Origin: Myxococcales bacterium
GTDB lineage: Bacteria; Desulfobacterota; Binatia; HRBIN30
Length of the DNA: 64,000 nucleotides
Reading direction: 5' to 3'
Assembly (NCBI GenBank): GCA_037445065.1
Contig: JBBILD010000007.1
Coordinates: forward strand, 149,704-213,703
Shown: positions 44,225-55,659 of the stretch, piece by piece
Numbering within the stretch: the first letter of the stretch is position 1
Layout: the number at the start of each line of letters is the position of its first letter
Made by a program: the position numbers and the translations under genes
Notes under the pieces: model-generated
Told to the model about the DNA's origin: nothing
Databases searched by the model: none
The model's input: the letters and a program-made list of their open reading frames with translations, nothing else

Positions 44225-46321
44225 ATGGCTTGCCCGGGTAAACGTGCCTCGGTCGGTTGGTATCGGAAGCTTCTGCTGCGGCTTTGGGGCACGGCGGCGC
44301 TGTGTTGCCTGAGTTACCGTGATGCCATGGCAGTCGCGCAGGAGCCCTGCCCGGACGCAGGCGGGCCGATCGCCCAGTTGATCGGCCACCTCTTCGGCGG
44401 ATCGGAGCCGTGCGTTCCAAGTGATCAGAATCAGGACGGACGGCGCAGCGTGGCAGACATCGTAGCTTGGGTGCGCACCAGCACCTCGCCGCCGCTTCCC
44501 ACTAGGACACCCACGACCGATCCCGGCTCCTTTACCAGGACACCCACCCCGCGTGCGCCCACGGAGACGGCCACCCCAACGCTTGTGGCCCCTAGTGAAA
44601 CCCCAAGCATTTCGCCAACTTGGTTAGCTTCAACCACCCCCTTGGAAACCTGGACACCCACTCTTGGAGTGGAAACCTGGACCCCCACCCTTGGAGCGCC
44701 CACTCATGCGACTGCCACGGATACCCCGCAGCGGCCGAGCGCCACGGTGGGAGCGGAGACACCGGAGCCGACACCGACCATCTCTGAGCCCCCAGAGGTA
44801 ACCTCCTCGCCGACGTGGACACCGACTACGCGGACCGGATCGGCCACGCGGGAGCCAACGCTCACCCCGACGTTGACGGCGTCGGCGTCGCCGACGCCAA
44901 CCCCATCGCAGACGCGGACGCCGAGTGCCTCGTTTAGCCCTACGCGCACGCCGACCCCTTCTAACACCTTGCCGCCCACGCGTACGCGCACGCCGACTCG
45001 GAGTCCGCTGCCCACAGCCACCGAGTCGGCCACGCCCACGGTGACGCCAACGGTGACACCCAGTCCGAGCGTGACGGTCACGCCGACCACGACACCCACC
45101 CGGTCAAAGACGCCGACGCGCACCGGGAGCCCGACGGCAACGCCGCCAGTGTTGCGGACCCCAACACCGACGCGGTCCCTTACCCCGAATCCGACGACGA
45201 CACCCACTTTTACCCCGACGGCTGTTCCGAGGACACCCACTGCGACCGAAACGGGGCAGGCCGAGCGCACTGTCACCGCGACGCGAACGAGGAGCCCTAC
45301 GCAGAGCCCGATGCGGAGCCCTAGCGGGACGGTGACCAGTCCTTCTACAGCTCGGCCGTCTGCGACTGCCACCCAGACCCGATCGCCAAGCTCTACGCGG
45401 ACGGCCACGGCCACCCGCCAGCCCACGCTCACGCCCACGCCGAGCGCAACGGTCAGCGTCACAAGGATCCCCTCGCGAACCCCGACTCCCACTACGACCC
45501 GCACCTTCACCGCGACGCGGTCACCCACACGAACTCGGACACTGACTGCCACGCAGACGCGCTCTGCCACCCGCACCCCAACGCGAACGCGGACCGCAAC
45601 GCTAACCGCGACTGCGACCTCTTCGCCATCCCGGACCCGGACCCGCACGGCCACCCCGACACCAAGCCCGGCGGTGGTTGGGCCAGTTGTGACGTTTTTC
45701 GGGATCGTCAACAACTTCGACGGGTGTGTGTTCTGTTGCGACCTGCGGTGTCGCCGCACGCCCACGCCGACGCCGGCGTTCGATGAAGCCGGGCGCCGCG
45801 TTTTCGAGGCGAGAAGCGGCCAGTTCGTGATCGTGGTCGAGGGTCGCCCAGGCCCCAACGGACTGGCTGTCGGTGTGTCGTTGGAGCCGCGGCTTGACGG
45901 AAGGCCTGATTTGCAAATTCAGAACAACCGTGACATGGGTAATGGCAGCTTGGCCGTATGTGATACGGGCCCGGTCTCTAACGGAGGGGGAGGCGTGCCA
46001 GGAGTGGAGCCGGCTCGATTCGACGAGGAAGATCCCTTCGTGACCAATGCGCTGAACGACTTTGCCTGCCGCTTCGACCCTTCCGTCAGTAACAGTGCGC
46101 CGTGCACAGTGTTGGACGAAGGGCGCGAGCCGCGGCTAGTCGTCGCCAATTCAACCGCACAGTTCTGTGACTTCGTGGCCTCAACAGCAGCGTTTCCCCC
46201 TGGCGAAAATGTGCTTACGGTGCGGCTACGAGACGTATTGGGAAACCCGGGGCCGACTGCGCAGGTTGTCGTGCGTGTACCCACGCCGGTGCCGCGTGCT
46301 GTGGCCGGGAGCGAACCGTGA
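44225..46321 (+). CDS. Secreted mucin-like Thr/Pro/Ser protein A (dockerin-like N-terminus, conserved Cys-rich C-terminal domain)
   Basis: Signal-like N-terminus, DQNQDGRRSVADIV, about 400-aa T/P/S linker, about 200-aa C-domain shared with two paralogs. Confidence 0.85.
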   Translation: MACPGKRASVGWYRKLLLRLWGTAALCCLSYRDAMAVAQEPCPDAGGPIAQLIGHLFGGSEPCVPSDQNQDGRRSVADIVAWVRTSTSPPLPTRTPTTDPGSFTRTPTPRAPTETATPTLVAPSETPSISPTWLASTTPLETWTPTLGVETWTPTLGAPTHATATDTPQRPSATVGAETPEPTPTISEPPEVTSSPTWTPTTRTGSATREPTLTPTLTASASPTPTPSQTRTPSASFSPTRTPTPSNTLPPTRTRTPTRSPLPTATESATPTVTPTVTPSPSVTVTPTTTPTRSKTPTRTGSPTATPPVLRTPTPTRSLTPNPTTTPTFTPTAVPRTPTATETGQAERTVTATRTRSPTQSPMRSPSGTVTSPSTARPSATATQTRSPSSTRTATATRQPTLTPTPSATVSVTRIPSRTPTPTTTRTFTATRSPTRTRTLTATQTRSATRTPTRTRTATLTATATSSPSRTRTRTATPTPSPAVVGPVVTFFGIVNNFDGCVFCCDLRCRRTPTPTPAFDEAGRRVFEARSGQFVIVVEGRPGPNGLAVGVSLEPRLDGRPDLQIQNNRDMGNGSLAVCDTGPVSNGGGGVPGVEPARFDEEDPFVTNALNDFACRFDPSVSNSAPCTVLDEGREPRLVVANSTAQFCDFVASTAAFPPGENVLTVRLRDVLGNPGPTAQVVVRVPTPVPRAVAGSEP

Positions 46322-55659: not shown

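Follow-up and report, generated by a model that had tools for sequence, protein, structure and literature searches.

The locus described here raises the question of why a single short DNA word, the decamer GGACACCCAC, recurs in frame within three paralogous genes, here called A, B and C, which encode proteins with long Pro/Thr linkers. The genes lie in a 64,000-nt stretch of DNA (the window; positions 149,704-213,703 of contig JBBILD010000007.1, assembly GCA_037445065.1) from a Myxococcales bacterium placed in Binatia (HRBIN30) by GTDB, and an HUH/Y1 transposase of the TnpA-Y1 subclass 2.3 type is encoded between B and C. Comparison across the family shows the decamer to be the conserved end motif of subclass 2.3 transposases, a DNA-level signal tied to the enzyme. 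Around the transposase of this lineage it is concentrated in cis, and its copies in the linkers appear to have arisen mostly by conversion of existing codons. The original prediction, made from the letters of the window, had proposed that the motif shapes the encoded proteins and may supply recombination or nicking points that vary the length of their stalks.

Enrichment of the decamer in genes A, B and C

Gene A (44225-46321) carries exact decamers at 44505, 44538, 44652 and 45231, whereas its paralog B (46318-49131) carries eight, at 46610, 46712, 46754, 47336, 47396, 47441, 48137 and 48956. The third paralog, C (53059-55659), has forward copies at 53636, 54218 and 54800, together with reverse copies at 53085, 53121 and 53190; all three genes are on the forward strand. 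Since a dicodon gene caller chose the antisense frame over the Pro/Thr linkers, linker genes were treated by homology. All 18 copies previously listed (15 forward, 3 reverse) were verified in coordinate, orientation and frame. The reading of the reverse copies of gene C as W-V-S held as regards frame, but the start of C is uncertain (candidates at 52996-53083) and the copy at 53085 is fully coding only with some of these choices. A fourth reverse decamer of the C open reading frame (ORF), at 52915, lies 5' of the likely start codon.

The decamer is the most frequent 10-mer of the window, with 48 exact copies and none left of 41,600, and it occurs 128 times in the whole genome (3.79 Mb) as against nine occurrences of the reversed control word. 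Synonymous-codon shuffling within each gene (5000 shuffles per gene), proposed earlier as a check, placed the decamer above expectation in A, B and C. Gene B holds eight copies against a shuffle mean of 0.41, a number that none of the 5000 shuffles reached; gene A holds four against 0.24 (p=0.0002), gene C three forward copies against 0.11 (p=0.0004), and the C ORF four reverse copies against 0.22 expected (0/5000 shuffles reaching four). The decamer is used at 15 of the 36 [GRW]TPT sites of A-C, compared with 6/116 across the genome's remaining 65 TPT-rich ORFs, or 3/113 once a spurious ORF over an intergenic array is removed (p=2e-8 versus A-C). The second proposed check, against Pro/Thr linkers far from the transposase, gave the same outcome, as 14 close orthologs so located have one exact copy at 106 sites. 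ACA-CCC at TPT sites without the preceding GG was not enriched (5/69 in A-C vs 42/696 elsewhere), and the signal is therefore the whole decamer word. The short linker of a multiheme cytochrome in the window, put forward as a motif-free control, was uninformative because it has just two TPT and no [GRW]TPT.

Shaping of the proteins by the decamer is real but modest. The residue preceding TPT is G, R or W at 36/91 sites in A-C and, among orthologs, at 106/438 (p=0.004); the residue after the decamer is hydrophobic in 8/15 copies compared with 152/804 (p=0.003), and in the dockerin-like helix of C the W-V-S reading takes the place of other residues with no indel. To this extent the idea that the DNA motif shapes the protein stood. 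Its other part, that the motif puts Trp into the linkers, was not borne out: A, B and C have 4, 5 and 4 Trp as against 2-8 in motif-free orthologs, and Trp is native to these linkers.

The decamer as end motif of the transposase family

The transposase (50110-51105, forward strand; 331 aa) contains the motifs NHMH, FWE and YVELNP, corresponding to the HuH, W and Y motifs of subclass 2.3, and residues H71, H73, W154, E155, Y175, N179 and P180 are invariant in 39 aligned homologs. It has an FLCG..HRK insert, some 55 aa following the HuH motif and a long C-terminal tail (about 150 aa). In the available text of the TnpA-Y1 classification, subclass 2.3 has a median length of 325 aa, carries NHYH, WE and YVDLNP, and had no REP-like sequence found for it (Quentin, Siguier, Chandler and Fichant 2018, PMC6006769); the window enzyme shares with that description its length, NH(Y/M)H, WE, YV(D/E)LNP and core insertions after beta1 and beta3. 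It matches the RAYT model NF047646 below the cut-off (E 7.5e-13; 48.6 bits, cut-off 80) and has no Pfam match, while the match to the E. coli TnpA-REP structure 4ER8 is weak (phmmer E 0.0033) and was not recovered by profile search. The closest named relatives belong to Candidatus Binatia, and gammaproteobacterial relatives show 38-63% identity.

End motifs were surveyed in 80 subclass 2.3 loci from many taxa, 68 of which had both flanks, using the reversed word as control. The consensus GACAnCCAY, facing inward within 500 bp of the gene, was found upstream on the forward strand in 47 of these 68 loci, downstream on the reverse strand in 41 and on both sides in 34, compared with two, two and none for the control. 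The family consensus is non-palindromic; folding of eight decamer regions gave no shared hairpin, copies preceded by GT alone yielding a stem of 4-5 bp. The bases before GGACAC are not G-rich (G at -2 in 52/97, T at -1 in 58/97), and in other phyla A is commonest at -1. At most family loci the word is confined to about 500 bp around the gene, whereas in this Binatia lineage it spreads more widely.

The upstream word often lies directly 5' of a TTGAC box located 70-100 bp before the start codon. The window transposase has a predicted sigma-70-like promoter, read from sequence (50074-50102, forward strand; TTGACA, 17 nt, TATGCT), and lacks the left end motif just 5' of the -35 box, where most family members have it. 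The innermost motif clusters of the window face outward, and candidate element ends are provided by a 14-nt perfect inverted pair (49448-49461 / 51584-51597), each half with an inward-facing decamer. Three side observations concern transposase loci. An AT-rich 93-bp stretch (49975-50069) lies just 5' of the promoter; in the strain contig of run X7 a diverged sequence, equally long, stands in its place. The 3' region of the transposase (51028-51052) recurs 1.2 kb downstream (52222-52246) as an inverted copy of 25 nt (88%), possibly a relic of an inverted partial duplication. In Thioalkalivibrio sulfidiphilus ALJ17, a cultured gammaproteobacterium and possible experimental model, 15 tandem family words precede a subclass 2.3 gene (L048:106-664).

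Halo around the transposase within and across genomes

Among 41 related genomes, kin among which are not independent, at least 47 copies of the decamer occur only in seven, all belonging to the 14 with a full-length transposase gene; the 27 genomes lacking such a gene contain 4-26 copies (maximum 26). Several low-count carriers of the transposase have variant words. Within this genome, 67/128 copies lie at most 15 kb from its three transposase genes, which are three diverged copies. Genome G020 has a single gene, on a 1.28-Mb contig, with 44/57 copies within 30 kb and 50/57 within 65 kb of it, and the 88 kb surrounding the gene of G008 contain 81 copies. In G018, with a variant word picked after viewing, 23 copies fall in the first 19 kb and two in the next 55 kb. 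In G008, G018 and G020 the single transposase gene has the same neighbour, suggestive of long residence; in this lineage the enzyme looks sedentary, and the motif forms a halo in cis.

A classical GTAG-footed REP family is also present (42186-42211 and 62396-62424 in the window; 63 pattern matches in the genome). Composite units with a GTAG REP and a decamer about 45-70 bp apart occur on contigs C4, C10, C11, C13, C26, C27 and C33, and one repeat family seems to have captured the word of another. A RAYT-like HUH domain lies in frame within a methylase ORF (L174; G000:C12:1-2171), without a flanking GTAG REP.

Conversion of near-matches in Pro/Thr linkers

In other linkers, 216/241 sites within two mismatches of the decamer (90%) are already in the sense TPT frame. 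The ratio of exact to two-mismatch sites is 15:34 in A-C and 3:206 in those linkers. A gene C located 14.6 kb from its transposase in G020 has 3/15 exact sites, as against 0/47 in four sister orthologs (p=0.012), at positions non-homologous to those in the window; a conserved NSWTP(T/S) site that differs from the decamer at one or two bases in the sister genomes is exact in G020. The near-match preloading, the ortholog contrast and this site indicate that copies arise mostly by conversion of existing codons, and the conversion is largely synonymous. The in-gene copies match the flank profile of the extragenic ones (p=7e-4 and 3e-4).

Conserved coding DNA within the halos is spared, with two copies in 87 kb versus 48 in 37 kb in G020, and none in 58 kb versus 81 in 30 kb in G008. 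No copy was found in window genes D-H, the hydrolase gene, the transposase gene or the three immunoglobulin-like (Ig-like) domains of A-C.

Strain variation and duplicated segments

Strain contigs from three studies (runs X1-X8; low-depth, single contigs) were aligned on the region, and no RNA data set was among the matches listed for it. The substitution test covered 41 entries (40 positions), from 40 of 134 rows, on six contig stretches with differences known in full or up to a defined position. Within 10 bp of an exact copy there were 17/41 substitutions compared with 7.0 expected (p=2e-4), and inside exact decamers none compared with 3.5 expected (p=0.02). Substitutions form a hotspot around three copies at 47384-47474 on the forward strand, where 47465 is one mismatch from the decamer in the window and an exact decamer in runs X6 and X7. 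Codon positions 1-2 account for 15/24 near-motif and 5/16 far substitutions, a difference that is not significant.

Duplicated segments gave a similar picture of invariant cores with variable flanks. Across 13 non-redundant pairs from two genomes (identity at least 84%; alignment columns not independent), mismatches were found at 2/224 positions inside the decamer (0.9%), 112/663 at 1-20 bp from it (17%), 23/336 at 21-40 bp and 84/787 beyond 40 bp (10.7%).

Length changes also occur at the motif. A 27-bp tandem duplication of a motif unit (44645-44698, forward strand; ETWTPTLGV / ETWTPTLGA) lacks one unit in the X7 contig, and the same contig is 33 bp shorter between an exact and a one-mismatch copy that lie 33 bp apart (54218-54260, forward strand). 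Thus, among the indels listed, two of the three inside A-C are at motif duplications, both in frame and in linkers, while the third is a 6-bp insertion in the signal region of gene A, unrelated to the motif; none of those listed falls in 44440-48300, at 88% likeness. These two indels are the instances seen of the linker length polymorphism with motif breakpoints that had been proposed as a check; the substitution signal is stronger than the length change. A dedicated role of the motif in setting stalk length was not supported, as motif-free orthologs vary as much and any direct repeat yields such indels. B orthologs without the motif span 831-980 aa (stop-to-stop ORFs), with linker lengths as variable as here. 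A-C carry the motif as densely (18 copies in about 7.7 kb) as nearby intergenic DNA does (1.6-1.9 per kb), and this equality, the 90% preloading of the frame and the motif-free length variation leave a dedicated stalk-length system unsupported.

Proposed mechanism and alternative explanations

With confidence a little above even, we favour enzyme-driven conversion and flank scrambling in cis, filtered by purifying selection. The window transposase, apparently long in place, would keep acting in cis on nearby DNA, binding the decamer and nicking and rejoining single strands beside it; near-matches would become exact decamers, short motif units would be duplicated and flanking bases scrambled. 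Pro/Thr linkers would be colonised because their ACN-CCN-ACN codons are one to three changes from the decamer in that frame and because change is tolerated there. The signal peptide and the surface helix would tolerate the reverse reading W-V-S, and folded domains and ordinary genes would have few near-matches on offer and damage purged. The protein would mainly be a tolerant landing ground, with stalk diversification as a by-product. Binding, nicking and the enzyme as writer of the changes, as opposed to a host repair pathway alone, are what we infer from this pattern, which fits the logic of E. coli TnpA-REP, except that the address is a non-palindromic word of 10 bp and the bias towards cis is strong.

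Several observations weigh against this explanation. Enrichment of one-mismatch sites falls short of significance (p=0.16), and the copies within genes show no clustering (8 against 7.1 expected, p=0.44). In a test for donor tracts, no extragenic copy gave an extra match longer than 9 bases, so there is no sign that long pieces are pasted in. The effect inside genes was replicated independently once; in more distant Binatia, whose transposases have the motif at their ends only, 14 Pro/Thr genes close to the transposase contain two copies at 56 sites, and a Pro/Thr gene between motif clusters in G009 has none at 14. The strain test, with its 41 entries, draws on low-depth contigs, two of which dominate it. 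As for the halo, its enzymes group together on the tree with weak support (89/40), 61/128 copies in this genome and 51/132 of those examined in G008, the latter in distant clusters, are far from any such transposase, and 27 of the 61 lie at most 250 bp from a GTAG-type REP, indicating that a second spreading route exists.

A bolder version, in which an HUH nuclease has been domesticated as a mutator confined to cis and guided by the motif, installs its 10-bp address in neighbouring genes through near-match conversion, protects it, mutagenises ~20 bp around it and gives the host stalk variation in sequence and length, seems to us rather unlikely; if true, it would represent a diversity-generating mechanism without RNA template, invertase or cassette. 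We also consider it unlikely that the cell keeps the sedentary transposase beside surface genes in order to vary stalks and signal regions. Such host selection would agree with an intact, apparently vertically inherited enzyme located at most 15 kb from gene C in two genera, with in-gene density equal to the intergenic one, with the two motif-bounded in-frame indels and with the codon-position tendency (15/24 vs 5/16, not significant). However, the single transposases of G008 and G018 have no such gene in the examined halo, linker lengths vary regardless in G022 and G024, which have no transposase match, and copies are mostly intergenic, the Ig-like domains at the binding end containing none.

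Selection for binding sites of a domesticated DNA-binding or chromosome-organising protein, with point mutation and selection fixing cheap decamers near the gene, would account for invariant cores, largely synonymous conversion and flanks that fit a weight matrix without long donor tracts. Neither an excess of substitutions adjoining the core nor tandem duplications of 15-40 bp would be expected from it, the catalytic residues are intact, and selection at each of more than 100 redundant sites would be hard to sustain; we regard it as quite unlikely. Repeated local hopping, whereby insertions and excisions each left an end motif and the in-gene copies are in-frame survivors, would be in keeping with a motif that is the element's end, with intergenic islands reading forward then reverse like empty elements, and with the near-identical multi-copy elements of distant relatives. 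It becomes improbable in view of the island interiors of G020, which have no sequence in common (0 matches of 60 bp or more), and of the linker copies, since random footprints would not put 15/15 in one frame at intergenic density; moreover, the dockerin-helix copy came without an indel and 47465 suggests base change at a pre-existing site with no insertion. The chance that amino-acid content and codon usage produced the pattern is practically nil: Pro/Thr linkers do have an exact-site background of ~3% (3/113), but shuffles, paralogs and orthologs reject this explanation.

Comparison with known systems

The system works like RAYT/REP (a REPtron) but fails the palindrome test: the repeats flanking the gene are not palindromic REPs with a GTAG foot. 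The E. coli enzyme TnpA-REP binds to a conserved REP and cleaves C/T sites of low specificity on both sides of it; strand transfer was proposed to make the linkers variable and to give rise to tandem copies (Ton-Hoang et al. 2012, PMC3333891). Features shared with TnpA-REP and its REP/BIME repeats are a Y1 enzyme that here looks sedentary, a conserved word and highly variable adjacent DNA, as well as tandem amplification and inverted doublets on both sides of the gene (PMC3333891, PMC5581495). REPs, however, are 20-40-bp GTAG hairpins, genome-wide and mostly extragenic (PMC3333891; RAYTs, Bertels et al. 2017, PMC5581495), whereas the decamer has 10 bp and no shared hairpin, is concentrated in cis and appears to enter genes via near-match conversion.

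TIRYT genes and TIRtrons carry GGGGWSAS inverted repeats, with examples mostly in subclass 2.1 (Di Nocera et al. 2013, PMC3733652). As in TIRtrons, a Y1 gene is bracketed here by inward-facing short repeats that form dimers and clusters, and GGACAC matches the last six positions of GGGGWSAS; the core GACAnCCAY, in contrast, has no G4 run, and neither a cis halo nor in-gene conversion is described for TIRtrons in the available text of PMC3733652. In-frame REPs and Y1 genes flanked by TIRs are already published there: intragenic REPs and Rickettsia RPEs are in-frame repeats in host genes, tolerated in flexible linkers and N-termini (PMC3733652). Those repeats were inserted as whole palindromes and lengthen the protein by up to tens of residues, while the decamer's 10-16-bp sites mostly overwrite codons. 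Compared with subclass 2.3 as published in the text available, the additions here are a conserved non-palindromic end motif and, in one Binatia lineage, a cis halo and in-gene copies (PMC6006769).

A Y1 transposase of subclass 2.1 was also proposed to diversify an adjacent host gene in the prochlorosin (procA)/TnpA-REP case, with no shared recognition word; the authors withdrew the causal claim (Laurenceau et al., 10.1101/2020.03.09.984088). Here, unlike in that case, the genes concerned contain the decamer themselves, and it lies at the centre of the variation. DNA uptake sequences and the cyanobacterial HIP1 are short words that build up in coding DNA genome-wide and bias codons and residues. 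The decamer differs from both in being local and tied to one enzyme gene.

Full-text literature searches for GGACACCCAC, and for GGGTGTCC or GACACCCA with transposase, retrieved, among the matches listed, no title or abstract describing the motif, subscription papers not being covered; searches on TIRYT, tyrosine-transposase arrays, REPIN diversification and Binatia Pro/Thr proteins likewise gave none on the motif among the matches listed. The subclass 2.3 word, its cis halo and host-gene conversion were thus not described among the matches listed, though Figure 9 of PMC3733652 or the supplements of PMC6006769 could list the word.

Y1 transposases of subclass 2.3 are frequent among marine Gammaproteobacteria, and no DNA partner had been described for them; the conserved end motif, which accompanies the gene in cultured genera including Psychromonas, Shewanella, Endozoicomonas and Thioalkalivibrio, offers a concrete biochemical substrate. 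The enzyme's reach is recorded naturally in the sharp halo in cis, and the signature of invariant core and variable flank in coding DNA bears on what keeps sedentary RAYT-like enzymes alive. It also serves as a warning that residue patterns in low-complexity linkers may come from neighbouring mobile-element enzymes and not from protein function.

Intergenic islands, operon context and neighbouring genes

Intergenic gaps in the halo contain short tandem units, typically forward copies followed by reverse ones, with duplications of 15-40 bp. The left island of the window (49406-49922) follows this order and has short tandem duplications, while the right one (51390-52951) has forward copies at 51390 and 51416, then reverse copies at 51573-52942, and extends into the 5' end of gene C. 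Of the two outer arrays, one (41573-42407) comprises six exact and additional variant copies, all forward, and the other (62471-63836) nine exact forward and then five exact reverse copies, including a tandem 24-bp unit. The possibility that arrays bracket genes as mobile cargo was rejected, given that they flank ordinary genes (solute-symporter-like and hydrolase-like, labelled by eye) and that the interiors of the islands are not remnants of transposases or genes. The contig ends within an array in a duplicated 157-bp unit (63539-64000), and contig C34 starts with a 91-99% copy of it (C34:1-426), so the two contigs may join there.

Proteins A, B and C have a common architecture of signal peptide, DxNxDG module, long Pro/Thr/Ser linker (about 400 aa of Pro/Thr linker in A) and Cys-rich Ig-like domain, C-terminal in A. 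We take the DxNxDG module to be dockerin-like from its motif; it had no match in Pfam or NCBIfam searches. The Cys-rich domains (45674-46321, 48262-48861 and 55051-55659) belong to no Pfam or NCBIfam family, and a confident model (pLDDT 92) predicts an Ig-like sandwich whose structural matches are middling, the best being PorU 6za2 (Z 8.2, rmsd 3.5, 116 aligned); Foldseek gave no match at E 0.001 or better, and there was no PDB sequence match. Many copies of the domain exist in the genome, and it was matched at E 1e-30 or better in 36/41 related genomes. A metagenome scan for the gene B domain in close strains gave 13 loci (best identity 66%), none at strain level.

In G002, G004, G007 and G009 the operon runs, transposase-free, from a hydrolase through a pyridoxamine-oxidase-like gene to A, B, C, D and onward. 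In the window, a ~4 kb module with the transposase sits between B and C of this otherwise conserved operon, which is broken at the same junction in the five closest genomes. The four genes D-G (55800-60740) are paralogs arranged in tandem; their unannotated family of exported proteins (about 340-440 aa) is kept downstream of gene C across Binatia and has further clusters on contigs C14, C17, C19 and C21. The cytochrome mentioned above (2280-4724) is MtrC/MtrF-like, with an N-terminal dockerin-like module and the short Pro/Thr linker, and positions 7228-14112 encode a 2294-aa RHS/YD-repeat protein with SpvB and TcdB_toxin_midN-type Pfam matches and FG-GAP repeats.

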